A program made the position numbers and the translations under genes. Below are positions 6,250 through 53,636 of a stretch of 64,000 bases of DNA, piece after piece (position 1 is the stretch's first letter; the number at the start of each line of letters is the position of its first letter). Source of the DNA: Dipteris shenzhenensis (taxonomy: Eukaryota); the NCBI GenBank assembly GCA_047967505.1, contig CM106538.1; one strand, 5' to 3'. The notes beneath the pieces were generated by a model. It ran no database searches, was not told where the DNA came from, and was given only the letters and a program-made list of their open reading frames with translations.

Positions 6250-6485
6250 GTACGGAATCCTGCAGCAAACCGTACCGTACGGTACCTGCTGCTGACCGTA
6301 CAGGTGACGCAACTGTACGGATGGCTGACGTGGCTGTACGGCTGCTGACACAATCCGTACGGTTGCTGACGCAATCTGTATGGACGCTGACGCAGTCCGT
6401 ACGGTTGCTGGCGTGAGCGTACGGTGGCTGGCGCAGGCTGTACGGTGATGACGCAAGCTGTACGGCTGATGATGCAGGCTGTACT
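6250..6485 (-). repeat. ~21-bp tandem array (consensus near TGACGCAAGCTGTACGGTTGC on +) in the Gypsy-1 leader, GTAC/CCGTAC-rich
   Basis: GTAC cores at 6315, 6336, 6357, (6378 GTAT), 6399, 6419, 6440, 6460, 6481, plus five more between 6250 and 6301. Confidence 0.9.
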
Positions 6486-7090
6486 GCAGCCTGTCGCAGG
6501 ATGTCCCGAATCCCGATGGCGCAGTCACGTCGTAGGGCAAAGAGGGCTCCTCGCAAGGCTATGGCTGAGGTTGGAACCTTGTCCAACTATATAGGGAACA
6601 GGGCAGCCAAATTAGGAAGCTCTGCTTCCAAAAAAGGCTCACCCTCCCAGCTTTGGAGGGTGGTGCTTTTTCGAAAAAAGCAACACCTCTCAGGGTGGCC
6701 GCACCCTGTTCCTGCTCCTTGCGCCTCTCCCTGCCCTGGCCGAAAATCCTTCCAGCCATGGCGCACCAACACAGCCTCCATCTCTGCGTTCTCGATCCCC
6801 ACGCAGCCCCGATCAGCCTCGAACTGCTCGCCTGCCACTCAGCTACTCTATCGCCTCTCCTTCTTGCACCTCTGCTCTCTCCCAGCTTCGTTTCCCTTTC
6901 TCACCTCAACCCTTCAGGAATTTCGAAATCTAGACTCTCTCTTTCTCCTACCTTTTCCCTACATCCTTACCACCCCTGATAACCCAGGAGCCAACCAGAA
7001 TTTGCAGCAGCAAATTTCGAAATTTAGGGCATACCTAGAGGAAGAAATCGTCCAAAGTTCTCGCATCAGAAATTCCTACCTCAGGAGCTG

Positions 7091-7102
7091 GCTCTGATAC
7101 CA
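7091..7102 (-). other. Primer-binding site (tRNA-iMet) of Gypsy-1
   Basis: Reverse complement is TGGTATCAGAGC, 2 nt from the 5' LTR. Confidence 0.95.
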
Positions 7103-7104
7103 AC

Positions 7105-7626
7105 TGACACATCCCAGCACTCCTGAAACCTCTGATCTGCAAAACAAACACACACCACGTGAGAACTGAGCAGGCTGCTCACCACCCAACCATGACACCT
7201 ACGGGATGTGATCCCGAATCAGGAGATGTCCCCTCCGAGCCACGAGCTGAGCTACTGGCACGAACTCCCAATCAGATCCAAACCAGCCTGGTGTCCCATA
7301 CCACCAGGTGGCGCTGTGAAGCCTGGGATCTGCCACTGGGCCTTGGGCTACGCTAAGATGCAGGCGCGCGTCCGCGACTCAATCCAGGAACAGACCTAGC
7401 ACCTGGGAACGAAACTTGCTCCCAACTGCACACTGAGAAATGAACCCCCTGGGCCCCTTTTATAGACTCGAGCCCCGAGCGCCACAAATAGCGAAGACCT
7501 ATAAATAGTTCGTACCCTTGCCACTCAACCCGAGAATCAAGCCTGCCTAGCTCTAAGCCTCCCCAGGCTACCTGAGCTAGTCTTGTGTACCCAGTACACG
7601 TCAGATACCAATCCGTGCACATGACA
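7105..7626 (-). repeat. 5' LTR of Gypsy-1
   Basis: Direct repeat of 951-1472, followed by TSD AACTT. Confidence 0.97.
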
Positions 7627-8019
7627 AACTTGCATGAGAGAGAAGACATGAGCATGAAGGAGAGAGAGGGGGGAGAGAGAGAGACCACACGTGATGAGAC
7701 TTTAGTCTGTACAAAGTTTAGGCACCTTGTATTTCAGTCCATGCAAAAGACACTCTTGGGTTCCTTCAAAGAGAGCCAAGAGCTCCACCCATTTGGGTCA
7801 TACACCATGCACTTGTGTGTCCTCCTCCACATACTTGTTTACATCCAATACCACAAAGTACAATAGGCATGCTCCATGTGACGCCATTAATGAGACATGT
7901 TTGATTCATGTGCCTCTTCTTGATAACCATGTGCACACTCATCTTTAACCTCAAGAAAGGGTTACTAGACCATGAGTCTTTCAATACCCTTAGACCATGA
8001 GTCTTTCAACACCCTCCCT

Positions 8020-8610
8020 CCATACTATTGTACACTACTTTAATTATGATGCTGGCGTAAATGCCCCACTCTTGGTGTACATGAGTGCCAAATCGGCATA
8101 CAAAACTGAGCTAAGAAAACTCCCCTAACTGCGACTATGGGGGGAGGAGATGGAGCTATGCTGCTGAAACAGAAACAAACCTTAACCTTGTTGCTGTCCC
8201 AGACCCCGCTGTAGACCGCGGGACGGCTGCCTTCAATCGCGATCTATAGGGAGTTCTATATGGCCGCCTCTAGAGCTAAATTGGCGGCAGCTGAGGCAGG
8301 AGAAAGGCTGGTACTGGATGCCAAACTGAGGGGCAGAGCAGCCCCTTACGTAGGCATGAAATGGCCAACTGAACTGCCCAACTAGCAGTCCTGGTTGACC
8401 AACCTAACTAATCAGGTCAACCGACTTGATTAGTCGGGTCAACTGACCCGAACTGGTCAGCAACCCATGTCGACCAAGAGGTAACCCAGCTGCCCCTTGG
8501 TTGTGCTGCTGGAAATCTCTCAAAAGGTGCAAAAGCTTCTAGATGCGCGATTTGCTGACAAGGCAACTAGTTGTCACTACAACCTAGGCTTGACCCTAGT
8601 GCATGTGACA
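8020..8610 (-). mobile_element. Old LTR (3'-LTR-like), homologous to 16037-16644
   Basis: Shares long blocks such as TGTACATGAGTGCCAAATCGGCA.ACAAAACT and GAAAACTCCCCTAACTG with 16130-16644. Ends TGTGACA followed by TTCCCCTC (PPT on minus strand). Left boundary approximate. Confidence 0.7.
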
Positions 8611-11519
8611 TTCCCCTCTTTTGAACTTGTTGCTAGGTGGAAACCTCGCAATGCTCTACGTTGGTGACCCAAACCGCTCTGGCGTGGCCTGTGACTTTGG
8701 AGAATAGGAAGGGACCTGACTCATCCCTGGACTAGGGCTCATAAAGGGGTCACAACATATGACAAAATATCTTGGGTCAGACTATGTGTCACACTACATG
8801 CTAGTGCAGGGATGCATGTGTAAATGATATCTTGCCAAATAGCAACCAAGGTAGCCGAGGATGGAACCGGATGCCCACCCATCCTAGACTATAGCAAGCA
8901 ACCCAAATGTTCCACACTGAGACACTGGCTACTACCTCCCACACGCTATCCTCCAGAGTGGAATGAGGATCTGTGCTATCAGGAGAAACCGCCTCGTGGA
9001 GCTCTATCCTCTAAATGCTCTGATCCTGCATCCGGTAAGCTGGGGAGACCAAATCAATCTGGAGCACGTGACCTCCCTCCAAGCCACCATCCTCCAAGTG
9101 TAGTCCCTCTGAAGGTTCTGCATGCAAGACAAAATCCTGAGGGCTCCCATCCAAATCCTCACTGCGCTGCTGTAGCTCCAAAGGCAATGGGGGATCATCT
9201 CTAGAACTCCAACACAGCAACAGTGACCACCCGTATCGGCTCCAACCATGGGCCTATGGGCAAGCCTCCACGGCCAGCCAGAAGAAGTAGGAGATCTTCC
9301 TTGGCCGCAAACTGGACCAAAGGCGAGTCCAAAACCTGGAACGGACCTCCTGAAGCACCCTCTGGTGCTACCCAATGCCACTCCCTCGAAGGGGTCCACG
9401 TCGCAGTGCCCATTTGGAGCCTCCAGGTGGTACAAGAAAAGAAGGGCACCTCATCCACCCGCGCCGACCCTAGAAGACCAAAACCACTCTCTCGGATCCA
9501 CCTGGACCTCCCTCAGGGGCCTACCTTCCCAAAGCGAAAGGCGCCATCTGGGGGCATCCTGCTCTAGAATGCTATGGGAACAATGTGCCACTCCTTCCCC
9601 AACTGGCCCACAACTCTGATCGTCTGCCAATGAATCCCATCCAGACTCCCGTCCATCTCTAGGTCTCTCTCAATGAGTGCCTAAACCAAGCCTCTAGGCC
9701 CTACACGGAAGAAACTGGGCTGATTGCTGCCGCACTGGATCATCATCCTTAAGGGGACCACAATCCGAGAAAACTGACCCAACCAATGGCTGTCCGTCCA
9801 ACGGAGTCCTTCCCACTAAAACTCAGGGATGGCGGGTCAATCTCCCTCATCCGCTGCCCTACCCATCGCATATGCGCTAAGGCTCCAAGCTTCACCTCTA
9901 GCTCCAAGGGTAATCTACTCCATCTGTCAAAGGAGCAAGCCAAGCCGCTGTCCCACTATGCCCATCCAATGTGAGTCCCGATGTCCCAGCATACGTCCAT
10001 CCTGATCTCTGATCTCTGGGTGCCACATGAGGGGTTGTCGCTCGAACTCCTCCCTGCAACAGGGCTGAGCACGGATGAGGCCACCTGCTAATCTCTGCCG
10101 ACCCTATGTAGGATCCTCATCATGGGGGGAACCCTTCCCCGTAAGGGGGGCCCCTGAGAAGATCCATCTTGTGATTGCTGCCACTGCCTTCCCATGCGTG
10201 GGATGTTCCTGAGAAGCCCTCGCTGTAAGAGGAGCTTTCAGGGTTTTGCACCAACGGTGAGGCTGCGCACAACCACCTTGCCCAGGAGGGCTCTGCTCTG
10301 CATCTCCGGATCAATGATACCCAATCCTCCCAATGCATGTGGCATGATCACCAGCTGCCAAGCAGGAGGCAATGTACCAAGCCATGGCAAGAAGGACCTG
10401 GTTTGCCACTAAGGCACGACCCGCAAGGGACAGTTTGGCCGAGCTCCAGTAGAGAAGCTTGAGCCGAACACTCTCGAGGACCAAGGCGATCTGTTGCTCT
10501 ACTGTAATATCAATACCCACCTAGCATCTGAGGTATCTTACTGTCTAGCCCCACGATATCCAGCGGAAGCCAAAGGCACTCCCCCACTCTCGAATCTCTT
10601 GTGTCTCCTCAGATCTTGTGAAGAAACCGATGGATTTTGTCCAGTTGATCCCTGCACCCGAGGCCTCGCAATAGATAGCCAGGGCTCCCCTGACTCTCTC
10701 CAAGCTCACTGTGGTGCCCTCTACGTACAAGGCTGTGTCATCTGCAAACTCTAAGTCTAGCAGCTCCTCCTCCTGTCTGATTGGGAGCCTCAACTCTGTG
10801 AGGCCCGCCACCTGCGATCTCAAGTAGTAACCCAATTCCTCCGCCACAAAATGGAAAAGAAAGGGAGCTAGGGGACAGCCTTGACGGACCGAGCGCAAGA
10901 GAGGAAAGACCTCGCTTGTGTGTCCACCGACAAGCATCTGACTAGAGCTCCCCGCATAAATCACAGAGACTCCTCTAATTAATCTGTCTCAGAAACCCAA
11001 CCTCTGCATAGTGCCCTTCAGGAAAGACCACTCCACCCTATCGTAAGCCTTCTCAAAATCCAAGAAAAGGATGGCCAAAGGCTGTGACTCCTCACTCTGC
11101 TGCTAGCATCTCAGAGAAGGAGGCACCACCCTGCTTGTCCTCCCCAAAATTCAGGTTGTTGAAGTCTCCTCCTACGATCAATGAGTCAACATCTGGAAGA
11201 CACTCTATCAGCCTTCTCCAAAAGGCCGGACGGTGCTGTCTGCACGTTGGGGCATACACATTCAGGATCCCCATCCTGACTCCCATCTAAACTACCCGCC
11301 CTGGGACAAGCTCACCCTGTTCATAGACCTCTGGAGCCACCGCCTATGAGACCGAGATGCAGACCCCTCCGCTGTCCCCTACAGCAGGAGACCACACCTC
11401 CGGGCCTCTCCCCGAAAAAAGGTGGTGTCACCGTCTGATATCTGATGCTGAGAACATGTGCTCCTGTATCAAAAGGAAGTCCATTTTGCTCGCCCTACTA
11501 CTGCCCTTTGCAACTTTTG

Positions 11520-11757
11520 CCGAAGGATTGGGTACTACAACTGACTACGAGCAAGGTCGTGGAACTCGTGCACATTCCAACTCACTATGGTCCAACTCAT
11601 GAGGATAGGGAAGAGAGCAAGCAAACCTCAATCTCAACACATGAGCAAGAAGAGAGCTTGTATTTCTCAAAGGTTGCATACAACAATGAAGACCAAAGTC
11701 AACCATTTGGCCTTTTATACAAGTCACCTTTTGAAGAGAGGGCCAACCCTATTTCTT

Positions 11758-11800
<43 letters not shown>

Positions 11801-12715
11801 GTTACAACCTCTTAGGCCCATATGGTGCCAAGGCATATGCTGAGTCTTACAACCTTCCCTCTGTCTTCAAATGGCTCTTGTGTTATCCATATACGGGATC
11901 CAAATGGCTCTTGTGTTATCCTTGCCAATTTGGGCGATTTCGGCCACTACCTCAGTCCTGAGCCATTTGAGGCTTAAAACCCGCAGGGCTACCTCAATCC
12001 TGAGTCATTTGCAGTTCAACCCCGTAGGGTTTGGATGGGGCAGATCCGTCAACATGCTCAAACGCACTTAACGTTGTCTCAAAACTAGTGGGAGCATTCC
12101 AAGCAACAACCTACAATAATTTCAACTCACTACCAAGCTTGTGTGTACAAAAATTTTACCTTGCACTCAAGGATTCACTGAATGACAACAATACAAACAC
12201 CCACAGTGTTGCATGCTTGAGACACCATACTCTCTAAATTGAAGGATGACCCGAGCAATGTGAAAGAAGTTCATAGCTTGGATTAGCTAGCTACAAAGAG
12301 GGCAACATAACTTGCATCACCTAGCTTTAAAGAGGGTGACATTAGCTACATTTTTTCATTTAAAATAAACTTTACCGTGCATCTGAGGATTCATTGAATG
12401 ACAAAACTACCAATACCCTAAGTACTCTTTTCACTTGGAATATGGCACGAGCAATGTGAAAGGGTTACACAACTTAGATCACCTAGCTGCAAAGAGAGCA
12501 ACATTTAGCAAGGCAAAAGGCCTGTGTACCATAGATTAACTAATTACAAAGAGGCCAACATTAGTTGCACTGTTTTACTTTGAAATAAACGTGAAATGGC
12601 TTGGGCACACAACATCGAAGATGTTATTGATTAGAAGGAATAACATGACTCTAGCAATTAGCCATCAAGTGAAAGCGATGCATGTGAGAAGCTTATGGGC
12701 ATCAATAAAACAAGG
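11520..12715 (-). mobile_element. Unclassified insertion inside the L1 endonuclease, probably an LTR-element 3' end
   Basis: Separates the putative ORF2 start (MDYSPSKRLEVLSF near 12757) from the rest of the APE domain. GAGTCTTACA followed by ACCTTCCCTC near 11850 resembles an LTR end plus PPT. Contains (CT)n at 11762-11797. Boundaries approximate. Confidence 0.4.
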
Positions 12716-13324
12716 AAAGGAGAGAACCTCAAGGCGTTTGGAGGGCGAATAGTCCATGTCCGTACGTCGGTGTACTAGGGTGAACATTGGCTCTATGCCA
12801 ATCTTCCATTGCCCACTTCATCATGAAGGAGACTTCCACTCCAAACAAATCAACAGTGGCCAATAGCCAGATCAATCTTTGCCTCAGGTGGCAATCTGAT
12901 AACCCCTACTCCCAAACCATACATTGGCTTCTCCTGCGCGAAGCTCAACTGAAAATTCACTTTAGCGCCAAAGGTCCAGTCCCTGTGGCTCCATCCATTC
13001 GTCCATCATGCATGAAATCTGATCCCCCAACATAGCATCAAATACCACTGGGACCCACTACGCTGATCGAACCCCCTTTCTAGGGCTGCAAGATCATAAG
13101 CGTCACCTCTAGAGACAGAGTAAGAGTCTGGAATCTCTAGGTAGTTCCACGGCCACAATCTCCAAAAGTCCTGCGGTAGAGGATGCCCAAGCTGGAGTTT
13201 GGGAGCTGCTGTGACCGGGAGAACGAGCCCCTTCCTTCTCGATCCCACCCTAAATGGAGGGAGGGGATAGGATGTTGAGACGACGAAACAGAAGGGGATG
13301 CTATCTTACCCTTGCCTAATGACC

Positions 13325-13550
13325 GGGGAGTCGAGGCAGGTCCAAGGGGGGGTGGGGAGAAGGGGGGAGGCTAAAGAAGCTGCAACGGAGGGAGCGGGGG
13401 GGCGGAGGGGGGGGCAGGTGGTGAGGATGACCATAGCAAGAGGGGCAAGGGGGGGAGGAGGGGGTGGGGGGAGCTTGGGAGGAGGGGGAGGGAGAGAGGA
13501 GAGAGAGGGATCCGAGGGGGGAGGGGGGCGGGGAGGAATAGGGGCAATCA
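13325..13550 (+). repeat. G-rich low-complexity purine tract
   Basis: Many runs of 3-8 G separated by short A-rich spacers. Confidence 0.85.
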
Positions 13551-14334
13551 TAGGCCCACCCTATTGATCAAGCTCCTTGGGGCTCTGGATCCCCTCCTCC
13601 TCAATCGATGCCAGGCTAACCTCCACAGCTTCCGCCATCGCAACATTAGGAGCTCCTGAGGCTTACTACTATTGACGCATGGGTTGCTGTGGTCGCTGGA
13701 CCTCCACTACGGGAGGATCGCTTGGCTGGACAATGGCCCTTGCCGCTGGGGGGGATCTCCAACCAAGGGCTCCTACAGCTGCTCCTTCGCAGGTGTCTCT
13801 CGAACAACACGCTCTCCCTGCGTCTAGCCCGTTGCTTGTGGCGCTTTTGAGCCAGTTTGCTTGGTTTCTTTTTCTTTTTTACCTGGGTCCATTCTCCCTC
13901 TGAAGGTGTCACCCAGGGGGTCTAAGACTCCTGCTGCTCCCGTCCGAGGAGGGGCTAGGCCTTGGTCTGCTGACTCTGCTTGCCTCACGAGGGTGGAGGG
14001 AGAAGCTCGGCGGCCCTGGCCACGAGGGCAGTCTTTGGCTAAATGACTGATCTGCTTGCAACGAAGACACTGGCCTGGTAACCCAGAAATCTCCACTCTC
14101 TGACGAAGGGTGCCCCCTCAAGGGTCTCGAGGAGGATCAACTCTGGGAGGGACTTTGAGCTCTCAACCACCAGTCTGATCTTGGGGACTCGTCATCTAGT
14201 ACCATTGATGCTGCCGAATTTGGCAGGGACTCCAGCACCGTGCCAAACACTCTACCAATGGAGGGGAGGATGGCTCTGTATTCCTTTGGGAACCCCTAGA
14301 AGCGGAGCGTCACCGGGAATAGGGGAACATGGTG

Positions 14335-14760
14335 TGTGGCAAGAAGGAGGAAGCGGGGAGGGAGGAGGAGGAGAATGAAGGCGGGGAGGAGACGGGGGAG
14401 AGGAAGGCGGGGAAGGAGGCGGAGAAGGGGTGGGATGGAGGCAGGAAGGTGGTGGGGAGGAGGCGGAGGGGAGGCAGAGAAGGGGGGGCGAAATGAAGGC
14501 GGAGTGGTGGCAGGGGAGGAGGCAGAGGGTTGGCAGGGGGAGGAGGCGGGAGATGGTGGGAGAGGAGGCAGGAGATGGCAGGGAGAAGATGGGGAGATGG
14601 TGGGGAAGGAAGGCGGGAGATGGTGGGGAGAGGAGGCAAGGAAGGAGGTGGGGTGAAGAGGCGGGGAAGGAGGTGGAAGATGGCGGGGAAAGGACGAGGC
14701 GGAAGAGGGCTGGAGGGAGGAGGGAGAAGGCAGAGAGGGTGGGCAGCAGGAGCAGCCAAG
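14335..14760 (+). repeat. G/A-rich low-complexity tract (GGAGGCGGGGAAGG / GGAGATGGTGGG-like units)
   Basis: About 425 bp of mostly purines on + with recurrent degenerate units. Confidence 0.85.
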
Positions 14761-16023
14761 GAGCAGTTGTTGGATGGCATAGCTGCTTCCCGAAGGGATA
14801 CTAGGACTGACATTGTCCCCTTGGGACTAAAAATGATGAGCGCACCTCTGATGAATCGACCAACGTGCTATCCTCACGAAGGGAACTGCAAGTGTAGACA
14901 CTAGTCACTGCTACTACTGGTTGCTCGAGACCTATTGAAGTGTCATCAACCTATTGACTGAATGATACTCCAACTACTGCCACCTTAACGAACTGAGGAA
15001 GGGGAACTGTGGAGGCTACTACATGACTATCCTCACTGCCAAGGAATCGTCAACCGTACTGCTGATAGCTACACATGCCACTCCAGCTGTGAGGGTACTC
15101 CTCCTGCTAGGCCTGGAACTGGTCTGGCAGCAGACTCCTCATGAGCGTGGAGGCTAGTGGGGTTGGAAATTGAGCCCACTAGTCCTAATACTCCTGATGA
15201 TAAGGTGAAATGTGAGTCATCCTGACTAAAGCTGATGTGGCCAACGTAGCTCCAAGGGTGGAGCACAACCCATAGGAATTGACTGTAGCTGATGAATACG
15301 CATGATGGATGAAAGACCCATCACATGTGTCTGTTGAAGCTGGCATGTCCCCTTGGCCCAAGGAAGGAAGACCCTTCACAAATGACTGTGAAAACAGTGT
15401 GCTCCCTTGATAAAGCTGATCCAGCTGATCGAGCTCCCAGGTGGAAGACCCAGAGGAACTAATTGGAGATCATAAAGCTTGGACGAGTGAGAAACCCATC
15501 CGAACTAACTGGCCCCAATCGGCATGACGTCTGGTCCCATGTGCAGCCGCCTCAAGGCGTTCTTGTTCCATCAGAAGCTGGAAATGGTCCAATTTAGTTG
15601 CATCCTCCTTTGTTTTCTTTTCCTGCTCGCGCAAGAGCTGGAGCTGCTCACAAAGGAGTCGATTCTACTTAAGAAGGCAATTCTGCTCCCTAAAGGCTCG
15701 CATGAGAGCTGCTATGTTGGCTGGGTCCATGATGGCAGACTAGTAGACCTGTCAACTGCTGCGACAATTGACTGCCAGAGAAAAAAATTCCCCAAACCTT
15801 GCCGCAAGGTGTCAACGCACACAGGTGAAGATGGGAGCCCACCTGATGCACGATGGAGGGAGGGAGGGAGAGAGGCTAAATGGAGTACTACCACTAGCCC
15901 AGGATTGGACCAAAAGACAATTAATATCCCCACCATGCTCCCTCCTCTGCTGACTGAGTCCCCATTCTGACCTTTGCTGCCAGGACTCCCTACAAACTTC
16001 TTCAGATCAGAAGAAAGCATGCT

Positions 16024-16644
16024 GCTCTTATACCAATGTAACATGCGGGGACGTGCTGTGAGAAAATAGATGAGCATACAAAGGAGAACTCAAGCATGAA
16101 AGACACAAGAGATCCTCCTAACTATTCCGCATTGCTTTATTTACGATGCTGGCATAAATGCTTTGAATAAGGTTGTACATGAGTGCCAAATCGGCACACA
16201 AAACTAAGATGAGAAAACTCCCCTAACTGTGACTGCAAGAGATATAGCTATGCTGCTGAAACAAAACTACCAAACCTGTTGCTGTCCCTGTCCCTGCTGT
16301 AGGCTGCATGGAGGTGCTGCCTTTTCAATCGCAATCTGTAGGACTGCTGTAGGCCACCTCTGGAGCTGGATTTGTGCAGCAAAGAGGCGGGAGCTGAGGC
16401 TGGAGGAAGGCTGATACTGGATGCCAAACTGAGGGGCAGAGCAGCCCCAAAAACCTGATTGGTCGGGGCAACATACTCGACTGGTCAGACCAACGGACAT
16501 GACCTGGTCAGCACCCATGGTGATCACCCAGCTGTCCGTTGGTTGGGCTGCTTCCCTCAAAAGGTGCTGCAATTGGTTGTGGATGCTGCGTTTGCTCACA
16601 AGGAAGCTAGTTGTCGCACTGCAACCTGGGCTTAACCCTGGTGC
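16024..16644 (-). mobile_element. Old 5'-LTR-like sequence (16037-~16644) with a degenerate tRNA-iMet PBS (16024-16035)
   Basis: GCTCTTATACCA (TGGTATAAGAGC on minus) lies next to TGTAACA at 16037. The body is homologous to 8020-8610 but clearly diverged. Confidence 0.7.
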
Positions 16645-26049: not shown

Positions 26050-26990
26050 GGTTGCATCCAGGATGAGCGGTACATTCTCCAACATGTTCGGACGTTTAGG
26101 CCAAACAGAGTTGGCTGACATGGAGAACCCCTTCGCCGGCATGTCTGCAGGAGGGGAAGGTCAGCAACATCTAGCTCCTGAACCACAGACCGCCACTAGG
26201 ATGGAAGCCACCTTCGTAGACCCAGGACCCTATGCCTATGCAAGACCTCCCCAATGGGAACACATGGATGAGGGAATTCAGGAGGCAAGATCCCAGCTGA
26301 GGGGATGCGAGGAACTTCCAAGGAGGGGCGCCTTATGAACCCCCCACAGTCCAAGTGCCACCAACCTATGGGGTACCACAGTTCCCACCTTATCGCCCAT
26401 TGCATGGAACTAATGTTCCCATGCCCTAGGACCCAACTCCTCTGAGAGTATGTCCCTTTCCATCCATACCTGTTGCACCGATGAATGCAAACCTTAGCAC
26501 ATCTGTTCCAATGCCAGTACCAGTAACTACGTGGATACCACCACTAGAGCACCAGGCTTAAGGCCAGCCCTGCGTCCTATCAGGCCCACAACAACATGAC
26601 CCTTGCCAATCACTTAAATAGTGTTAACTGATGAGGCAATGCGCATCTTGGTGAATGCCTTGGGAAGGGGGACCACACCACCTCCACCCGCCCCAGTGCT
26701 TCCTATAGGGATTGCAAATCCCTCGAGGAGCTAACCCATAGCAATCTCCAAGTTAATGACCAAGTTCCTAGGAGAAGGAGACCCGGTTGCCCATGTGGAG
26801 TGATTTGAGCAAATTTGCAAAGCTTTTGGTGCTCTTAGGGACCTAGAAATGGCCAATGCGTTTGGTCTCAACTTGGATGGCAAAGCAGGACAATGGTATA
26901 GGGCTCTCACCCCAAAAGAGAAAATCAACTGGGAGACATTGAGAAAGGCCTTCATTGTGGGGTTCACCCCAGCAACCAAAACTAAATCAG
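26050..26990 (+). mobile_element. Ty3/gypsy gag remnant (Gypsy-2, left part)
   Basis: KFLGEGDPVAHVE*FEQIC...AFGLNLDGKAGQWYRAL...INWETLRKAFIVGF is a retrotransposon gag pattern. Confidence 0.75.
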
Positions 26991-26994: not shown

Positions 26995-29844
26995 TAAAAG
27001 AAGGGGAAAGAAAGAGTTTGAAAAGCTTTATTTGGTGCATTTAGACGTATGTGGTCCCATGCCTACACGGTCATTAGGCAGGGCTGAATACTATGTGACA
27101 TTCATTGATGATGCAACTAGGAAAGTGTGGGCTTATGCTATAGCTCGGAAGAGTGATGTGTTCTAGGTATTTCAAAAATGGCTGGCCTTGGTTGAGAATC
27201 AGTCAGGTAGAATGCTTAAATGCCTACGGACTAACAATGGTGGAGAGTATCTCTCTCATGACTTTCAACATTTCTATGATACATGTGGGATTAAGAGGGA
27301 GCTCACATCCCCTCATACTCTAGAGCAAAATCCAGTTGCAGAAAAGATGAACCATAATATTCAAGAAAGGTTGCAATGCATGCTTTCCAATGCAAGTCTT
27401 TCTGGTGGTTTTTGGGCTAAGGCAATGAAGACTGCAGTGCATGTGATCAATAGATCACCTAGTAAGAGTTTAGATGGTGGTATTCCTGAAGAGGCATGGA
27501 GTGGCAAGAAGCCCTCTTACTCTCATTTGCGTATATTTGGGTGTGAGGCATATGCACGTGCCAAAAGATCTTCGAAAGAAGCTAGATCCTAAGTCTAGGA
27601 AATGCATCTTTCTGGGTTATGGTGAAAGTGGAGAGATGGGCTATCGTCTCTGGGATCCAGAAGCAAAGAAGATCATACATAGCCATGATGTATTCTTCAA
27701 TGAGAAGAAGATGCATAAGGCACCCATGAGGGATGTTGAAATGAGGAGAATCACTTTCCAGGATGTGAATCCACCTACATATGTTGATAGACAGCAAGCT
27801 GTCCATGCACCAAATGTGCAAGAAATGGTACCACCAAATACTCCCACAGGTATACAATCAAGGGTAGATGATGGATCATTTATTGGTGGAAATGATGAGC
27901 CAAATGTGGCTGATATGCAGGTGGGACAGCAAGCTGAAATGCCCTTGAGAAGATCATCTAGAGTGTCTAGACCACTTGATAGGTTTGTTCCAGGGGTAGA
28001 CTATGTGATGCTTACTGATTGCAGGGAGCCTTCTTGCTACAGAGAGGCTATGATGCGCGAGGATCAATGCAAGTGGGAGTATGCTATGCAATCAGAGATG
28101 AGTTCACTTATGAAGAATAAGACTTGGGACTTGGTTTCTTTGCCACATGGAAAGAAAGCATTGCCATGTAAATGGATCTACAAGATGAAGGTCACAGGTG
28201 ATGATGTGTCTAGGTATAAGGCCCGTTTGGTCGCTAAAGGTTCAAGCAAGAGAAGGGTGCGGACTTTGATGAGATATTCTCTCCGGTTGTGAAGATGATT
28301 ACACTTAGATGCATGCTTGGACTAGTGGCAGAAGAGGATATGGAGCTTATGCAGATGGATGTCAAGACAGCTTTCTTACATGGGGATTTGCATGAGGAAA
28401 TTTACATGGTGCAGCCAGAAGGCTTTGAAGAAAAGGGCAAAGAACATTTAGTTTGCAAGCTGAAGAAGAGTCTCTATGGTCTTAAGCAAGCGCTTAGAGA
28501 ATGGTATTAGAAGTTTGATGCTTTCATTTGGTCCCAGGGTTTTAGAAGGAGTGAAATTGATCACTGCCTCTACACTAAAAGGGCTAAGGATAATAGCCTG
28601 ATAATCCTGGCACTATATGTGGATGATATGCTATTGGCTAGCAAGAATACTTATGAGCTAGATGCATTAAAGGCCAAGTTGCATGAGGCCTTTGATATGA
28701 AGGATTTGGGACTTGCAGGTCATATTCTTGGTATCACGCGTGATCAGAGTAGGAAACTCCTTTGGCTTTCACAGAAGGAGTATGTTACAAAAGTATTGGA
28801 GTGTTTCAATATGGAGGGGGGGAAGGCAGTGAGTACTCCATTGCCTCCATATGTGAAACTGAGTCATACAGATAGTCTCAAATCAGATGAGGAAAGATGG
28901 CCAAGGTTCCTTATGCATCAGCAGTTGGGAGTCTTATGTATGCTATGATAGCTACTAGACCAGACATTGCATTTGTAGTGGGAGTTGTTAGCCGATATAT
29001 GGCTAATCCAGGAAAGAGGCATTGGGAGGCAGTTAAGTGCATCATGAGGTGTATACATGAAGGGTACCAAGGAGATGTGCATCTGCTTTGGTAAAGGAGA
29101 CATGCGTGTACTTGGGTACACAGATTTAGACTATGCAAGGCATGTGGATAGTAGGAGATCCACTTCTGGTTATGTGTTCACCTTTGCAAGTGGTGCAGTA
29201 TCGTGGATGTCTCATGCACAGAAGTGTGTTGCTTTGTCTACCACAGAGGCTGAGTATATTTTGCAACCACAGAGGGTTGCAAGGAAACTATATGGCTTGA
29301 TCGGCTAGTGGGAGATTTGGGGATTCATACAGGTGTACCGACATTGCATAGTGATTCCATGAGTGCTATTCAGCTAGCACGGAATCCAGTCTTTCATACA
29401 AAGACCAAATACATTGAGGTCAGGTACCATTTCATCAGGGAGGTTCTTGAGGACAAGCGCATAGAGCTTGTCAAGGTTCATACAGATGATAACCCTGCAA
29501 ATATGCTGACGAAGAGTCTACCTAGTCAATGGTTTGAGTATTGCCGTGTATTGATGGACATTGGATAGTATGCTCATAGTTTGTTCTCCCTTAAAGGCAC
29601 ATTGTCCTTTAAGTGGGAGGTTGTGGGGGTTTAAGGTCACTGTGCCTTTGTCCCGGTTATGTACAATACTCAAATGCATATATAAATGAATGAAAAAGAA
29701 GATTAGGGTGTTCTGCACCCACCAAAACTTGTGTGGCTCTCTGTTTCTCTCTCTCCCTCTTTCGTTCTTGCTTTCGTTGAGAGCACTCTCACTTAGGGAG
29801 TTTGAGCCCCAAATCGCCTAAGCCTTGGAGGTATGAGGCTTACA
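26995..29844 (+). mobile_element. 5'-truncated Ty1/copia element (Copia-1, Tnt1/Tork-like): INT-RT-RH plus 3' LTR (29622-~29844)
   Basis: LVHLDVCGPM, YYVTFIDDATRKVW, KLDPKSRKCIFLGY, RYKARLVAKG, QMDVKTAFLHGDL, LYVDDML, PDIAFVVGVVSRYM, NPANMLTKSL. PPT AAGTGGGAGG at 29611-29620 precedes TGT. Confidence 0.9.
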
Positions 29845-29949: not shown

Positions 29950-31100
29950 GAAAGAATAGCAAGATGCCTTGAATTTCCAAATGTTGATGAAGAAAGAAAA
30001 GGTATAGAATGTTTCCAAACTATGCAAATCTGGGCAAAGGCTAAAATTGATGAGTTAATAAGGTCAAGATTCACTTTTGTAGTGGACCTAAGAAAAATGG
30101 ATATTTCCCATCAATGTAGTACCTATGAAGAACAAAAATCTGAGGGGGTATGTGGATTGTAGGAAGTTGAATGAAAGGAATGTCAAAGTCTCGTTTCCAC
30201 CCTTTGCTAAAAGCATTCTAGATAAAGTAGTGGGGCATGAGATATATTCATTTATTGTATATGGGTACAAGGGGTACAACCAAATCACCATGACCAAAGA
30301 AGATACAGAGGATCAATTTCATCATTGAATGGGTGAAAACTCAAGTGATGCCAAAATATGCACCACCAACATGGTGGACACATTCTAGGAGTACATTGAT
30401 GGTGGACACATTCTAGAAGATCACATTCTAGGAGTACATTGATGAACTCCTAGTACTTATTTGGGGTGACTTTTTAGTGTACAAAGTACAAATCCAATGC
30501 AAGTGGAATGTCTATAGAAGGTTCTTGAGAAGTGCAAGGAGCATAAAGTCTTCCTTAATCCATACAAATATGCATTTTTTTTCTTTTAGGAGTATTGTTG
30601 GGGCACACCAATTCGGATGAATGGATTATGAAATAAAATGAAGATTAGTGTCATTTAAAGATGAAGGATCCAACCATTGTCAAGCAAGGTCAAATAGGAT
30701 TTTTAAGTTTCTCTTGGAGACTTATTAAAAAGATTACTAGAATAGTTGAACAACCACATCTTACAAGCTACAAGGAAGGAAGCAAAGTTCAAATGGGGGA
30801 GGCATATCATTTCAAAATCTACAAGAGATGGCAGTAAAAGCTCCAATACTTTAAAAATTCAATTTGAATAGGATCTTTTATGCATTTCAATGCATCGAGG
30901 ATGGTTATTGGGTTGATTGTCACTCAACCCAAATAGAACATGGATTTTTATGAAAGACAAATATTTACAATGGTGAACAAAAATTACTCCACAACTAAAA
31001 GGGGAGCACCGGGAGTGTCATACAATATTCAAAAGTTTTGGCAAGCAGTGCTTTTTTGTTCTTCTAGGATAATCAAGCATTATTGTATTTGACCAACAGA
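29950..31100 (+). mobile_element. Heavily degraded gypsy RT/RNase H remnant, non-chromovirus (Athila/Tat-like; Gypsy-2, right part)
   Basis: LRGYVDCRKLNE...FPPFAKSILDKVVGHEIYSFIVYGYKGYNQI resembles the Athila/Tat RT motif (LDGYSGYNQI). Confidence 0.7.
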
Positions 31101-37100: not shown

Positions 37101-38426
37101 CACATCTATCTCTTTCAACCAAGTATCCAACTAGTAAACTCACAAGAGGCTTATTCTGGCAAAGTTGCAATTCACGAACAAGATCTAGAAACTTGGTTGT
37201 CCAACTTTTGGTGTGCTTTTGCCAAAACAGGACGGGGGTTGTTAGGGTTATAGTAGCTTTTTGAAAAATTTACATTTTATTTTCAATTACTCGATGAGAT
37301 GTGGCACTTCATTGATTGTAATTTATTAAGGTGTAACGTTTTTAGGTTGATTAAATTAGCGCTAAAAACTGTTATCATCTACGTGCATCTCTAGCCAAAC
37401 TCTACAACATGATGCGAAGATTGTCTATGAATTGTTTTGTAACACCCTCCTTCCTAACTTGTGTTATTTAGCTTGCCATCTTACCTTTGTGTCTTCCAAA
37501 TTTGAGGCATCCATTAGCTCACATCCAAGCTAAATGTGGATACTCTATCAGGTCCATAGCATTGGTATACAATTCGTGTGCTATCTTCCAAATTTGAGGC
37601 ATCCATTAGCTCACATCCAAGCTATATGTAGATAATCTATCAGGTCCATAGCATTGGTATACAATTTGTGTGCATAGTTAGCCGACGTAAATGGTTAGTA
37701 CACATTATCCAAGATTATCTTCACCATCAAACATCTATGACATTCTTTAAATTGGGTTCCCAGCTGTATTTTCCTAGTCGTTTATGGAACTATATTCCTT
37801 CAAGTATCTTTTGGATGGCTTTAATGTAGTGCTGGTAAAGTAATGAACTTATGCCTATTTAATTAATGACAGCGGCTGATAACACCATAATGGACTGGAT
37901 CTTTATAGCTTTGTGTCATTGTTTCGTTTGTCATGCCCTTCACATTGGAAGAAGGGTCTAAAGGTACACACATATTGATCCAGGGGAATGCACGCCCTTG
38001 ACAGTTTCAGTACAGAGGAAAACATTTCCGCTAATGTTTATTTGATGTTTCTGGCTGCATGATGATTTCATGTCTCTTATGCTATGCTTGTGATGTGTGC
38101 TTGCTTGGTGCGAACATATGATATAGGATTCTCCTTGTAGGCCATCCTCTGGTGGTTCTAGTGATACGCTATAGGCCATGGCATGTGCCTTGTAGGCATA
38201 AATAAAGACACTTATAGTGTTAGTGTCTTTTAGGCCACATAGGACACTTAGTCCTATGTTACACCTAGGACACTTAGTCCTAGGTCTAGGTACTTGTACC
38301 TTGTACTCCTTTGTTTTTGGTTTAATCTAAGTTTGACATGACGGGTGTTCTTCTGCGACCCTTTGCTACCTGCACTCTCTCTCATTCGACCCTTCAGTGG
38401 TATCAGAGCCAGGATCTTCTTCCTGT

Positions 38427-38645
38427 GCACCCTTTCTGTATAGATCGTACTAGTTGCCCGTACACCTGCCGTACAGTGCTGTACCTGCTCCCAAGCACCC
38501 TTTCCGTACAGATCGTACTAGTTGCCCGTACACCTGCTGTATTGTGATGTACCTGCTCCATCGTTCAACAAATCTGCTATCCTGCGCCATTTCTCCGTAC
38601 AATCCGTACAATAGTACGGACGTCTGTACAGACACGTACGGATAC
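38427..38645 (+). promoter_or_regulatory. CCGTACA/GTAC motif array in the Copia-2 leader (putative SBP/SPL sites)
   Basis: 13 GTAC cores in about 195 bp, with tandem TCCGTACAA-TCCGTACAA at 38594-38611. The array is seen directly; the function is inferred. Confidence 0.55.
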
Positions 38646-39737
38646 CATACATTTCCTGCAGCTGCTGTTCCAGGGACTTCCAGGAGTTTTTCATCGGCAA
38701 CTTCACAGGCGTCTGTCCACAGCACTTCGCAGATCCCCATCAGCTAGTTTAGGCCTTGTACGGCTGTCTTTTCACACCGGGCTACTTCTACAGCAGATCG
38801 TGATCTGTCTAGGACACTCTTCAAGGATTTCTAGCAGCTACATCGTTAGCTCAAAGCCTTTTGAGGCAGTTCCAACCATCTTGTAGCTGCTCCTTCACCT
38901 CGACTTGCTGCTGCTGCTCTGCTGGAGACTCTATCTCCATCGCAGGTACATCTACTGGCTAGGCGACCAGCTGGATACAAATTTTCAGCTCGCAATCCGT
39001 ACTAGGCTCTATTTTGAGGCAGCTCCAAGTGGCGAATGCTCATCTACAGCAGGCGCCTACTCCACGCAAGTTATTTAGGAGCCTCTCTAGAGTTGTCCAA
39101 TTTGCTCTCTACAGGATACTACAGCCTCCCTTTTGCTGAACCTACTGCATTGTGACAGTATTTGATTGTCAAACCCTAATTTCCAACATGAAAATTTAGG
39201 ACTTTTGACATCTAGACCTTCAACCTGTCAATACAATATTTTGGACAAGGTTGACAACTGAAATCTTTCCAAAAATTGAAGTTTTCTGTTAATTTCAGGT
39301 TCAGGACTGTCACATTGTGCCACGTCATCACTCAAGTCAACAAAATTTGAGGCTTTTGTGTTGGGAGCTCAATTTCAGCTGGTGTTTGGGAAAGTAAATC
39401 ATACTTTTGCAGTTTAAAGCCTTGAGGCTATACATTGGGTCAGATTTGCATACATTGGGTCACATTTGCAAAAATTTCAGCAAAATTTGGGGCTTTTCTG
39501 TATTTGCCCTCTTTTTGGCCTACTTGCCCTCAATAAATTTGGGGCTTTTGCTAGATTTACTGTTTTTGCAGTGAACATTGCCTGCCACAGTCACATTTGG
39601 GTCATATATGCATTTGCCCTTTGATTTGGGTCAGAAATTTGTAGATATTTGCTGTCATTTTTGGACAGCCAGCTTTTTGCAGTGATAGCCTTGAGGCTTT
39701 TGGGTTTTCAGGTCTTTTTCAGGGTATCACATTTGCT

Positions 39738-43991: not shown

Positions 43992-44566
43992 TCTGACATC
44001 CCTTGTACATTCATAGGTGGCTATATCCTTTTGGATGAACATGTGCCACCATGACTAGAAAATACCAGGTATTCTGAGATGTTTCCAGAGTACTTCAGCC
44101 CATCCCATGGAGGGGGGTTTGTAGGCCATCCTCTGGTGGTTCTAGTGATGCCCTATAGGCCATGGTATGTGCCTTGTAGGCATAAATAAAGACACTTATA
44201 GTGTTAGTGTCTTTTAGGCCACATAGGACACTCAGTCCTATGTGACACCTAGGACACTTAGTCCTAGGTCTAGGTACTTGTACCTTGTACTCCTTTGTTT
44301 TTGGTTTAATCTAAGTTTGACGTGACGGATGTTCTTCTGCGACCCTTTGCTACCTGCACACTCTCTCTCATTCGACCCTTCACTCCTTTGCAATGTCACT
44401 TGGATAGGGAGGCATCATACTACATCTAAAAATGGCAGATTCTAACTTGATAATTAACAATGAATTGTCAACCTAAGAATCTATATGCCTTACCTTACAA
44501 TGACTCTTTACTGTGTCAAACGTGCCATAAGCACTTGAAAGTTTAGTCTTAATACACAGCATATGG

Positions 44567-44683: not shown

Positions 44684-44774
44684 CTGATCACAATACCATG
44701 GTATTAGAGGAGAAACCTCCAATTCATTTCCTTCAATGTTTTGATAAAGACACAGAAAATCCAATAATTCTCAC

Positions 44775-44810: not shown

Positions 44811-45366
44811 CTGCATAGAAACGAAATAATGTCAAAAAGCCTTATGTGCATCATCCGAAACTGAAGTTGAATCCTCAACTACAAGGACCAAGGTCAACTG
44901 CAGCTCAAGTGGTAAGGATACATGACATAAGAAGATCTCTTGTTCAAATTTTGCTTTGTGAACCTAACACGGGATGGTACTGACCCCTACGCATGACATA
45001 GTCGACCATGGCTACAACCATGGATGGTAAAACATCTCTTGGGCAAGGATCATCCCCTCACATGCAAATTCTGAGGAAAGGAAGAATGATCCTCAAGAAA
45101 GTTTTAGGTGCCATTTTGTTACAGGAGGGTAGGAGAAAGAAATGCACCATGAGGTTGTGAGCTGAAATTGGCCAGTGATTAAAGAGAATAGAACCCTCAC
45201 CCAGACCAAAAGGGTCATAAAAACCAGCTTTGCTAGCCCGCAGGGGCTGGGGGGGTGAAGAGGATCAAGAAATCATGTATAGAATTTATTGCGTTAAAAA
45301 GCTTCAAGAATCACAAGAAATGTTCATATTGACAGCAGAAAGTATAAAACAAAAACGGAAAACCAC

Positions 45367-45450
45367 CTGTATGTCAGTGTTTACTTGGAGTGATGGATTG
45401 ACTTTTTGCTGCTGTTTGGATGCTCTTTGAAGAGCCTGATCCATATCCTC
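45367..45450 (-). CDS. TIC22: Tic22 internal coding exon (EDMDQALQRASKQQQKVNPSLQVNTDIQ)
   Basis: 84-bp phase-0 exon with TTGCAG acceptor and GT donor; resembles Tic22-like EDLEKSL.RAS.QQ..LNP....DIQ. Confidence 0.85.
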
Positions 45451-46569
45451 CTGCAAGTTCAAAATAAATGATTACACAGATGGTATGAAGAATTGAAACT
45501 CTTTTTTTATACAGGGATCATTTTCCAAATAAACGGTTCTTAACTTCCTAATCCTTTACTATCATTTTGGGCCTTGGCACAAGAGGAGGTTATTTTCACT
45601 CCAACGGTTCTTGCATCACGCTTCTTTGCCTATTCCCGGTGACAGAGCTAACCTCTTCCATCCCCCTTCATCCTGCTTGTGTTATTCAAAATAACTTCAG
45701 GTTTTCACAGCAATTAAGAACTCTAGCTGGGTACGTCAAACCTCTATGCTCTAATTTCCTTTCTAAACTTTCAAGTAAAACTTATTAGAATAATATCAAA
45801 ATAATCTCTTCCATTCCCCTTCACCCTGCTTGTGTTATTAAAAATAACTTCAGGTTTTCACAGCAATTAAGAACTCTAACTGGGTATGTCGAACCTCGAT
45901 GCTCTAATTTCCCTTCTAAACTTTCAAGTAAAACTTATTAGAATAATATCAAAATCAATCTGTTGCTCTAATCCCAGTTGAAACTAGCAATTCTTGTAAC
46001 AAATGCAAACCTTACCCTTAGTTTTACAAAGCAAAAACGTTTATTTAGTCTCTTGTGCACGTGTGTATTCAACACTTATAGCATAAAACCTTGCTTAAGA
46101 ACCCCAGGTTTAGCATGAAAATTTACACAAATAGATAAATGCTTATGAAAACAGGGTATTTAGACTTTTATTGGAATCATCTGGAATTTGCTATAAATTA
46201 AAGTATTTTGGGATTGCACAGCCATCCTCATATACCAGGGAGATACCCCTTTTAAGGATACTCATCAGTTCAAAAAACTGCATAAGATCTTACATAATTT
46301 CCTTTGAGAATGAAATTTTGTCCCGCGAAATGGTCCAACTACATTGCAAATGAAGAAATTGGTAGGTTGTGAACATCACACTTTGTCATTGCTGAGATGT
46401 GCATGCACTTTGGCTACTGTTAGCATATATAGTCACCATGAAATGTCTCAAGATGATAAAACGTGTGCGTTTCCAAATTTTGCCTCTTCGCCCTCCTTTT
46501 CTAGAATTTGAAACCGCACTGCAAAGGAGGAAAATATAGGCATGGAAGTTTGCTATTTCACAACTCCCC

Positions 46570-47735: not shown

Positions 47736-47790
<55 letters not shown>
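46570..47790 (+). mobile_element. Internally deleted RTE-X-like LINE (APE joined to C-terminal Cys/His region), ending at (CT)n 47741-47790
   Basis: IILAGDFNAQTG, YTCKTPDGSSAIDY, FDHRAM, then LEVEKGRWSKPRV...ENEEHALSHCRAYMHIRE. Confidence 0.7.
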
Positions 47791-47793
<3 letters not shown>

Positions 47794-48517
47794 ATACTAT
47801 GCATTGGAGGGCTGCCCAAGGATTGCATTGGCCTTTTCAATGAAGAAGAGGATTACATAGCAGACGAGAGGATTGCATGTCTCGAGAAGGAAATACCACA
47901 AGTAGATGCGATCATAATGATATTAGCTGTCTCTCCCATACAGGAATGCAAGTACAAGTGTTTTTCAAGGAGAGAGCCAGGAGAATTAAGATTCTTCGAC
48001 AAACAAACAAGTTGAAGGGCACAAGGATTTGGATCTCTGAGGAACTACTCTATTCACCTCCTACATACCTCGGCTTCACAACCAAAGAGCTCAGGATCAC
48101 GAGGGACTGTGGACTGAGCACTTTGCACAAGGGATGGAGGTCCTCGCCCCAGTCCTAGCGCAATTGTTCAACCAAGCTATATGTCACGGATTTCCCCCCG
48201 CTTGGAGCACTACCACTATTGTCCCGATACACATGTCAAGAGTGATGAAAAAGAGAGAGCAAGTGAGACAGAGTGCTGAACGTAAGTTGCAATAGATAAG
48301 ATTAACAACATACAAAGCAGGGAAAGGTTTTGTCTAAGTGACAAAACCTTATCCTTCACTAACCGTAGTTAGTGAACTAATTGGGGTTAGGGGGAAAAAC
48401 CTCTAAGGAGGGAAAAGTGCCCCTAACCTACTTATTACATTACATTGGTCACTGCCTAGAATATAATAATAATTCTAACACCCCCCTACAGTGCCAATGT
48501 CATGTACAAGGAAATGA

Positions 48518-51500: not shown

Positions 51501-52725
51501 GAAATCAGTGCCATCAGTGGATGTGAGAATAATGTCTCCCACTCCACACACTGAATAAGAAGATTTATTCGCATGAGTTACCTTCTTTTTTGTGGGTGGA
51601 GGATGCAGAGATACAAACAGACTCTTCTTGAAAGTGATGTGCTTTGAAGCACCGCTGTCAAAATACCAAGTATGAAGTGTCTCATCGACACTAAGAGAGC
51701 ATGCATCCTTTGAAGGATCATAACTGCAAGTCAAGAAAGCATATGGGTCATCATCATTAGTGGCTGTAACATCTAAACTACCCGTTGAAAAATCTGAAGT
51801 GCAAGACAGAAAGGCATAGTGCTCTTCAACAAAGTTGGCCGCAACATCTCCCCCATCATAAGAATGTGGAATTGATGCATCTGACACAGCCATACCGGAA
51901 TCCCTTTTCTTCTCTTTGGCTATGCACTTCTTGGATTCTCCAATATAATGACCTGGCTTCTTGCAATAAATCACCCTTTGCCTTATAAGAAGGCTGTCCA
52001 GAATCAGCTTTATGCTGATGTGTGGGCTGATTGGCATGTGGCTTTTGCTGCCCTTTACCCTTGGGTTTGAACTTGGAGAGCATAGCATGCTCGCCAGCCC
52101 AGGTTGCCATATTTCTGTGAGTCTATTCCTCCTGCAACATAAGTCTTACCAACTCGTGAAAAGAGAGAGGATTGCTGCCCCCCCTCAATGCCAAATTCAG
52201 CGAGGTGTGGAAATTGAGATAGGACTCAGGAAGAGAGTTCCGAGTGGTGGTAATCATCTCTGAATCCAGAATGACTTCATCAATATTCAGCAATTGTTCC
52301 CTCAAGTCCTGAAGCTTTGTGAGGTGAGAATTCATGGAATCTCCCTCCTCCATATGCGTATGGGAAAGTTCTCGCTTCAGAAAGAAACCCTGGCATCATT
52401 TCTTGCTGCAAACATACTCTTTAGTATCTCCCAAGCTGCCATAGACTCTAGAGTCCCATCTTTTTTGCTCTGCTGTGGGAGCTCCTGGAGCGGCTGCTCC
52501 AACTACTTGTGCTACATTTGCACCTCTACCCCTACCTCCAGCTGTAGGAGTGACAGGTGTGGTCACTGTATCTAGTCTTGCTTCATCTCCACTGACATAA
52601 TCCCAAAGATGTCTACCAACCAAGATATTGCGAACCATGAAACTCCACAAGGAGTAGTTGGTGCCATCCAACTTATCCTCCTCTGTGAGAACCCCGAACA
52701 CCTCATTGGGGTTGTTCTGAGCCAT
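48518..52725 (-). pseudogene. gag-pol of Copia-3, frameshifted
   Basis: MAQNNPNEVFGVLTEEDKLDGTNYSLWS, WYFDSGASKHIT, LWHAKYGH...CEGC, LIHSDVSGPM, YKARLVAKGY, LYVDDMML, YSDSDWAG, NVANIFTKAL. Confidence 0.95.
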
Positions 52726-53289
52726 TTTCACCAGATAATCTCAAAAAAAAACAGTAAACTGACTAACTGAAATCCCTTCCTGAGATATAAAATGCACAAG
52801 TAAAATCTGCAAAGAAAAATCTGCCCACAGTGACAAATACTATCACAGCCTGTCAAAGGCTCAGAATGCACTTCGATTATCTTGCAAATACTCTCCAATG
52901 TCACTAATAAGTCCAAAACTGCCTGCAAAACTCCGAAAATGCTTTTACACTGCCAAATTGCATCCGAATTGCAAAAGCCCCAATTTCTTAACGGAAATTG
53001 CCTGCAAAAGAGGGCAAATTGCCTGAAAGTCCCGAAAATGCAAGAAATTGCAGTGCAAAACTAAAAGCCCCAAATTTTGAGCTGAAATTGAGCCAAATTT
53101 CCCAAATAGTAATTCTCTTGCAAAAGTCCCAATTTCTTGGCCAATCTTTGCAATTTGCTTGCAATGTGTGCCAAAAAATGCACACCTTGCAAATGATTCA
53201 GAAGTCCCAATTTCTCGGCAAATAGAGATATTTGCAAAAAACCAATGCCCTTTGCAATGCCCACACAACACAAAAACACCCACACGTGG

Positions 53290-53636
53290 GATGTACGGCA
53301 AACAAGAAGAGCTGGTACGGCACACGTACTTTCGGCAACTGCTCGTTGAAGCTGATGCAATACCGCGCAGATCTGTACGGACTAAATGTGCAGGTTGTAC
53401 GGACAGCGCATGTACGGCTAGCGTAGGTACGACGATTGTACGGATGGTGGTTGTGGATACAGACGGAGGCGGCGCTGCTCTGTAGTGCAGGTACGGACTG
53501 GCAATGTACGGACGACGACGTGAATGCAGGGCCGTACGGGACCAGCAAGAGCTGTACAGATGGAAGAAGTACAACACTCCAAGCTTTCGCTGCAAGTACA
53601 TACGGCCGCACGACTGATAGGTGCAGGGTGTACGGC
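53290..53636 (-). promoter_or_regulatory. CCGTAC(A) motif array in the Copia-3 leader (putative SBP/SPL sites)
   Basis: 15 GTAC cores in about 345 bp, 10 as GTACGG on + (CCGTAC on the element's sense strand). TCCGTACAA at 53395-53403 and 53436-53444. Function is inferred. Confidence 0.55.

Follow-up and report, generated by a model that had tools for sequence, protein, structure and literature searches.

Arrays of host-factor sites in the leaders of retrotransposons have so far been known family by family. In Drosophila copia, the untranslated leader reportedly contains an enhancer with sites for host factors, the motif of which is, to our knowledge, not common to different superfamilies. The Drosophila gypsy element carries twelve Su(Hw) repeats in its 5' untranslated region (PMC2493044), and the VANC motifs of Arabidopsis VANDAL transposons are short, dense, non-coding and tandem-amplified, and share the same orientation (PMC5735166). 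The repeated motifs (RMs) of Sirevirus copia elements, present in 8-32 CpG-bearing, non-coding copies for which a regulatory role was proposed, are CGG-CCG palindromes found in the LTRs and ahead of env; they are described for Sireviruses only, with neither a common factor nor any GTAC given for them (PMC2829016). As for GTAC itself, SBP proteins, which are present in all green plants, bind a GTAC core (PMC3617394), the SBP-domain site is given as CCGTAC(A/G) (PMC6508781), and the banana miR397 promoter is described as having 11 clustered GTAC motifs.

The arrays described here lie in the leaders of one gypsy (G1) and two copia (C2 and C3) LTR retrotransposons, within a stretch of 64,000 nucleotides of Dipteris shenzhenensis DNA that we refer to as the window. 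They are built like the Su(Hw), VANC and Sirevirus RM arrays, and are a member of none of these groups. The likeness to the Su(Hw) array concerns position and number only, with about a dozen sites in the 5' leader of an LTR element (13-16 GTAC in our case); the Su(Hw) array belongs to one animal family, involves a zinc-finger protein and has a demonstrated function, whereas the present arrays consist of a 6-7 bp word in plant gypsy and copia elements, known from sequence. The Drosophila copia leader enhancer also differs from them in motif and in host. The first-pass annotation of this DNA had drawn an analogy with VANC, which holds for the dense, same-orientation, non-coding motif, with a tandem origin visible in two of the three arrays. 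It fails in that VANC motifs are family-specific, whereas here the motif crosses superfamilies. VANC motifs are also bound by an element-encoded protein and have demonstrated demethylation; here no such gene is seen among the frames scanned, and non-motif CpG, a proxy for methylation loss, is retained in one element of three. Unlike the Sirevirus RMs, the present sites are located in the leader, with none in the LTRs, and their motif is different from those in Table 3 of PMC2829016. The SBP/SPL response elements (CuRE) have the same GTAC core and the same CCGTAC(A/G), but those described lie in host gene promoters, and in the literature covered none appeared as an array in a retrotransposon leader. 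What appears to be new is a single motif that is common to gypsy and copia and matches the SBP site. No description of LTR leaders with SBP/SPL or CCGTAC arrays came up in the literature covered, although subscription papers and supplements lay beyond this coverage and motif tables there could hold one. Neither SPL nor SBP is named in the accessible part of a study of factor sites in H3K27me3-marked transposons (10.1101/2022.10.24.513474), and the accessible part of a wheat SPL study makes no link between GTAC and LTR leaders (PMC11290141).

The window is repeat-rich plant DNA, and besides the three elements it holds two further LTR remnants without a recognisable leader. G1 (951-7626, minus strand) is a chromovirus-like gypsy element with a chromodomain integrase, in which the Pfam families Retrotrans_gag, protease, RVT_1, RNase H and integrase were detected, with Chromo falling under its curated cut-off. 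Its LTRs are 522 bp long (5' LTR at 7105-7626, 3' LTR at 951-1472), and a leader of 1022 bp (6069-7090, minus strand) extends from the primer-binding site (7091-7102) to the gag ATG at 6068. C2 (38136-44382, plus strand) has LTRs at 38136-38397 and 44120-44382, a primer-binding site at 38398-38409 and a gag ATG at 39738, and C3 (48243-54034, minus strand) has 238-bp LTRs (5' LTR at 53797-54034, 3' LTR at 48243-48480), a primer-binding site at 53783-53794 and a gag ATG at 52725. All three primer sites are of what we take to be the tRNA-Met type. Perfect 5-bp target duplications flank G1 (AAGTT), C2 (CTCCT) and C3 (AAGAG), and the LTR pairs differ at 5/522, 7/264 and 6/238 positions, respectively. 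The elements had been described as intact, which is correct for the LTR pairs, target duplications and primer sites but not for the coding regions, whose frames are broken in all three; because these regions are in pieces, none of the elements is a working copy.

They had also been described as unrelated. This stands for gypsy versus copia, but C2 and C3 are 33% identical at the amino-acid level in gag, 55% in integrase, 55% in RT and 63% in RNase H, and on these protein sequences they are assigned to different families of related copia elements. Their leaders have in common a second motif block, located 3' of the array and rich in TTTGC, AATTT and TTGGG(G/A)CTT (39030-39737, plus strand, in C2; 52726-53270, minus strand, in C3), which G1 lacks, and the C2 and C3 arrays may be inherited from a common source. 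Owing to this kinship there are two deep lineages and not three, so that the results below refer to a sample of one window, three elements and two deep lineages.

Counted over the whole leaders, GTAC occurs 13, 16 and 15 times in G1, C2 and C3, compared with means of 1.7, 3.2 and 2.0 and maxima of 7, 8 and 8 in 500 dinucleotide shuffles (with the C2 leader run to 39800 in these counts). Sense CCGTAC occurs 9, 7 and 10 times, where about 0.1 is expected and the shuffle maxima are 2, 3 and 2. For the clusters alone, our recount gave the same numbers as the first-pass annotation, with 13 GTAC at 6250-6484, 13 at 38447-38639 and 15 at 53293-53633, and with 9, 6 and 10 sense CCGTAC. No CCGTAC is present in the LTRs of the three elements, and in the coding regions sense CCGTAC is found once in G1 and not at all in C2 and C3. 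Outside the arrays the density of GTAC is 2.5/kb; after the arrays, the densest 250-bp interval contains 7 and has no CCGTAC cluster. A fourth GTAC cluster, at 30265-30489, was discarded, as it has 7 GTAC and no CCGTAC. The extended word CCGTAC(A/G) is found 34 times in the window against 2.5 expected, and 30 of these occurrences are inside the three leaders, which are all the complete leaders that the window contains (3/3 with an array). In each leader CCGTAC is the commonest non-simple 6-mer (in C2 with a tie), and it is also the top 6-mer shared between them, and no four-letter 6-mer reaches seven copies in any of 41 comparison stretches of 1050 bp taken elsewhere in the window. The arrays are real and well beyond chance, and they are apparently under constraint.

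Each of the three is constructed in its own way. The G1 array (6249-6484, minus strand), with 13 GTAC and 9 sense CCGTAC(A/G), consists of a tandem of about 8.7 units, each 20-21 bp long, and of two sites that lie beyond it, and the palindromic CCGTACGG accounts for three of the nine sense sites. Elsewhere in the same leader there is a TATA-like word at 6593, directly upstream of the array, and the leader contains six antisense TGACG. The C2 array (38435-38641, plus strand) has 13 GTAC, 6 sense CCGTACA and two C>T-decayed copies, and includes a 68-bp duplication (38427-38559) and a 9-bp doublet (38595 and 38604), with outlying leader sites at 38757 and 38997. The C3 array (53292-53635, minus strand), with 15 GTAC and 10 sense CCGTAC, 8 of them followed by A/G, is aperiodic and its site flanks are unrelated. 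The repeats noted in the first-pass annotation (a 21-bp tandem in G1, a 68-bp duplication and a 9-bp doublet in C2) are all present. A coding role of the arrays was ruled out by the site spacing, which is not in multiples of three, and by the frames lying over two of the arrays, which have no Pfam family (21 frames scanned, two of them leader frames). With a helical repeat of 10.5 bp, the GTAC spacing is in phase for G1 (p 0.04) and for C2 (p 0.02) but not for C3 (p 0.43); the test was run with three periods and with two definitions of the motif.

The proposal that the leaders share a motif, rather than one captured block, agrees with our comparisons. A single transduced block was ruled out, as the arrays cannot be aligned: the best gypsy versus copia pieces are 23 nt or shorter, with E 0.05 or worse, and flank identity across elements is 0.24-0.28. 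Within the copia elements, the site flanks resemble one another only as much as random places do (0.27 in C2 and 0.28 in C3, versus 0.26). When the G1 tandem is compared with its unit consensus, 3 of 60 motif positions are mismatched versus 31 of 148 elsewhere (Fisher p 0.003, for a motif chosen post hoc), and among the eight aligned units one motif is altered, by a CpG transition. On statistical grounds, the unit that is shared and kept is the 6-7 bp motif and not its surroundings, and the base table over the 26 sense sites gives CCGTAC, then A/G in 23, with little beyond. This CpG-bearing motif sits in elements with CpG-poor coding regions (0.23-0.25 for the copia elements). The sites are not perfectly held, since four of the six internal differences between the two C2 68-bp units are C>T within motif copies, and in the copia leaders roughly a third to a half of all GTAC words (6/16 in C2 and 5/15 in C3) have no CC or GG flanks.

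The published SBP-domain site, CCGTAC(A/G), is matched by 23 of the 26 sense CCGTAC (p ~1e-5 under independence, although the sites are not independent). The SBP consensus invoked for these leaders is thus retained in this form, but not in the longer form TNCGTACAA, which is poorly matched, with T at -1 in 11 of 26 sites and the final A in 6 of 26. Our preferred reading, which we hold with evenly balanced confidence, is that the leader arrays would be homotypic sets of predicted sites for host SBP-domain (SPL) proteins, forming a regulatory module downstream of the LTR promoter that would operate as the Su(Hw) array does in Drosophila gypsy. The arrays are non-coding and lie between the primer site and gag, and two of them derive partly from local duplication of 21-bp and 68-bp units, the third having no period; slippage in the leader would build such an array and selection would keep it. 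The motif would then be maintained by selection among transposing copies for one trans-acting factor, probably an SBP-domain protein given the published consensus, and the array would have been reached separately in a gypsy and in a copia lineage, with the two copia elements possibly having inherited it. The module would act on the integrated DNA, most likely by raising or timing transcription. This suggests that different jumping genes may tap one host switch, whereas any control of the elements by copper or miR156 is speculation. One observation runs counter to a DNA enhancer, in that sense-only sites outnumber antisense-only ones, a bias that an enhancer does not need.

We put forward more tentatively, as a possibility, a wider form of this reading, in which unrelated LTR families throughout the genome of this fern-like lineage would have converged on candidate SBP/SPL leader arrays, with one host factor family gating or shielding most transposition, and many thousands of mobile SPL modules. 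Such gating could, for example, tie transposition to developmental phase via miR156-controlled SPLs, or the arrays could be the counterpart, in plants, of the Su(Hw) array. Fern genomes are large and methylated. If SBP-domain proteins do read the arrays, a motif kept by both gypsy and copia would suggest that transposition is gated in common by a single host regulator and offer a direct handle on the activity of LTR elements in such genomes, and these elements would spread SPL modules across the genome.

The shared factor could be a different one, either an anti-silencing protein of the VANC type, encoded by a transposon and supplied in trans, or a further host family whose core includes CGTA, and its effect would be local demethylation; we consider this credible but unlikely. 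The C3 array zone does retain non-motif CpG, with an observed/expected ratio of 0.84, compared with 0.31 for the remainder of the leader (p 0.008) and 0.25 for the coding region, but the contrast between array and rest of leader is missing in G1 (0.46 versus 0.65) and in C2 (0.33 versus 0.28). VANC motifs are family-specific, whereas the array motif crosses superfamilies, and the SBP consensus is matched through the seventh base. Apart from gag/pol, the 21 frames scanned in the elements gave no Pfam family, and the two leader frames gave none at all, although a partner could lie elsewhere in the genome. The version of this idea in the first-pass annotation, that the arrays keep the leader unmethylated, finds little support, and is weakened because CpG is raised in C3 only, one element of three, and because the C2 motif copies show C>T decay.

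We judge it decidedly unlikely that the motif acts in RNA, as the site of a host RNA-binding protein or as a self-complementary GUAC serving dimerisation or packaging. The arrays are within the transcribed leader, the sites are sense-only in 22 cases, antisense-only in 5 and both in 4 over the three arrays, with the same lean in all three elements, and the G1 array has a more stable fold than its shuffled versions (z -4.1). The strand bias had been taken to allow an RNA-level role, but it is weak evidence for one because tandem duplication keeps orientation, which reduces the independent trials to two or three, and it offers no argument for RNA because same-orientation arrays are also described for the DNA-binding VANC21. 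A shared RNA fold was ruled out, as the folding z-scores of the arrays are -4.1, -1.7 and +0.2 in G1, C2 and C3, no stable fold common to the leaders was found, and the leaders have no Rfam match. In addition, the Gag families differ between gypsy and copia, which would make a common Gag signal unlikely, and in related copies of C2 the part that is kept is the 3' leader block by gag and not the array zone.

It is improbable that a single ancient motif-bearing repeat spread from one family to another, through template switching or through nested capture, and was then turned over by slippage with no selection on the motif. Another leader block is indeed common to C2 and C3, and leaders turn over quickly, but the gypsy and copia arrays are unalignable, and neutral turnover would not spare the motif, a CpG-bearing word, while the flanks reach random identity. 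The turnover was observed on comparing the 5' end of C2 with the contigs of 4 of 22 sequencing runs (organisms A, A, B and C). All four runs cover the C2 LTR, gag, and the 3' leader block from about 39340, and all four have zero cover at 38697-39101, which by itself is no evidence. Two contigs of X6 bridge the array zone of C2 with sequence that is unlike or missing, and one X3 contig bears the first C2 array unit (38355-38528), which over its 174 positions shows 11 different letters and 4 gaps. In one low-depth X4 contig, from another organism, the primer site is joined to the motif block at 38594 with the DNA between unaligned; the motif-block stretch is of about 39 letters, as estimated from bin depths, and the short side of the joint has 22 letters at 80% likeness, such joints being of a kind that may come from repeats. 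A leader intron was also considered, and no GT..AG-ended joint is listed at the C2 5' end, which is not a test of it. The contig data, with single contigs at 80% likeness, fit weakly with a C2 leader zone that would be fast-changing yet motif-keeping, and the X3 and X4 contigs lend weak support to our preferred reading.

A coincidence, in which leaders often contain some repeated word and the same word arises in two lineages by chance, is highly improbable: very many windows were surveyed and a given 6-mer would occur in a 21-bp unit at about 0.4% (a rough estimate from shuffle rates), but every complete leader in the window carries the motif array, the G1 sites also occur beyond the tandem and the motif is constrained within G1, and none of 820 control pairs (41 stretches of the window) share a 6-mer at such density.

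We also searched for arrays of this kind in other collections. Among 87 other gypsy loci no array was found, and no 300 bp had more than two CCGTAC on one strand. These loci comprise 79 from the best 80 of 156 gypsy-integrase relatives in a prokaryote genome collection and 8 from a virus collection; they sit on contaminant and virus contigs, some of them are almost identical to others in the set, at least 3.5 kb is available upstream of the integrase match in 33 of the 87, and the coding-start call is broken in several. Another 11 primer-site loci and a pair of 'plasmid' records resembling copia were likewise without an array, and the copia gag alignment had no matches in the prokaryote genome collection. 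In the virus collection, primer-site patterns gave 119 loci, none matching the retroelement proteins of the window, a second primer-site scan gave 9 loci, none with an array, and the copia protein scans gave no copia leaders. In metagenomes, a scan for CCGTAC(A/G) occurring three times in close proximity gave at least 119 loci, 40 of these with short flanks only; among those listed none was an LTR leader, and a Met primer site or retroelement protein match occurred in 0 of 119, a shallow sample that is not proof of absence, and most of the listed triple-motif loci resemble ordinary tandem or Pro-Tyr coding repeats. In the collections examined, gypsy elements do not carry such arrays as a rule, and the feature is lineage-restricted at most. 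For both of the window's proteins that were searched, the closest named homologue, ranking below unnamed or mislabelled matches, is from the fern Ceratopteris richardii, with 44% for the copia gag and 53% for the gypsy integrase.

Besides their arrays of CCGTAC words (candidate SBP/SPL sites), the leaders of the two related copia elements carry a second block of dispersed motifs that adjoins gag, located at 39030-39737 (+) in C2 and at 52726-53270 (-) in C3. The word TTTGC occurs 12 times in the C2 block and 11 times in that of C3, against about one expected, and TTGGG(G/A)CTT is present in two and four copies, respectively. The C2 block is covered in all four sequencing runs aligned to the 5' end of this element, from ~39340 on, and folding of the copia blocks was no better than that of shuffled sequences (z ~ -0.9). 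This block is a candidate RNA signal of the copia lineage to which both elements belong. Within the C2 duplication (38435-38545, +), each of the two decayed CCGTAC copies has two C>T changes amid intact neighbours, as though a site loses its protection once one base has gone, a pattern seen in two cases only.

The leader of the chromodomain gypsy element G1 has additional words of its own. In its tandem unit (6250-6484, -) the CCGTAC site alternates with an opposite-strand TGACG word, the half-site of TGA bZIP factors; the G1 leader has six copies of this word, and the copia leaders have almost none (1 and 0). A TATA-like word at 6593 (-), ~110 bp upstream of the array, is a possible internal promoter of G1; another TATA-like word lies within the LTR, at 7464.

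Other retroelement remnants are present in the window. A third, more distant copia (~27000-29630, +; 36-47% to C2/C3) extends from integrase to RNase H, without gag or a recognisable leader; directly upstream (~26700-26990), inspection by eye suggests a fragment of a gypsy-like gag. An old gypsy remnant with an internal deletion (57881-62009, -) is flanked by repeats 77% alike, and neither primer site nor array was seen in it. A LINE-like stretch (~8017-16644, frames on the minus strand), flanked by ~600-bp repeats 69% alike, includes an RT fragment (10548-10988) as well as zinc-knuckle-like and proline-rich frames.

In public records, copia sequences appear labelled as bacterial plasmids (L347, L348) or bacterial proteins (P0004, P0132-P0142), and gypsy elements are present in many prokaryote genome bins; both probably represent eukaryotic contamination. 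Three metagenome contigs (L126, L208, L223), which are not LTR leaders, contain dense aperiodic arrays of ACGG/CCGT and GTAC palindromes that give the impression of being a eukaryotic mobile element's subterminal repeats.

The window also contains a near-perfect 297-bp tandem duplication directly outside C3 (54198-54795), a 153-bp duplication (45649-45961) and an inverted repeat of 142 bp in which a duplication is nested (62282-62786), along with numerous further two-copy tandems 50-120 bp long.
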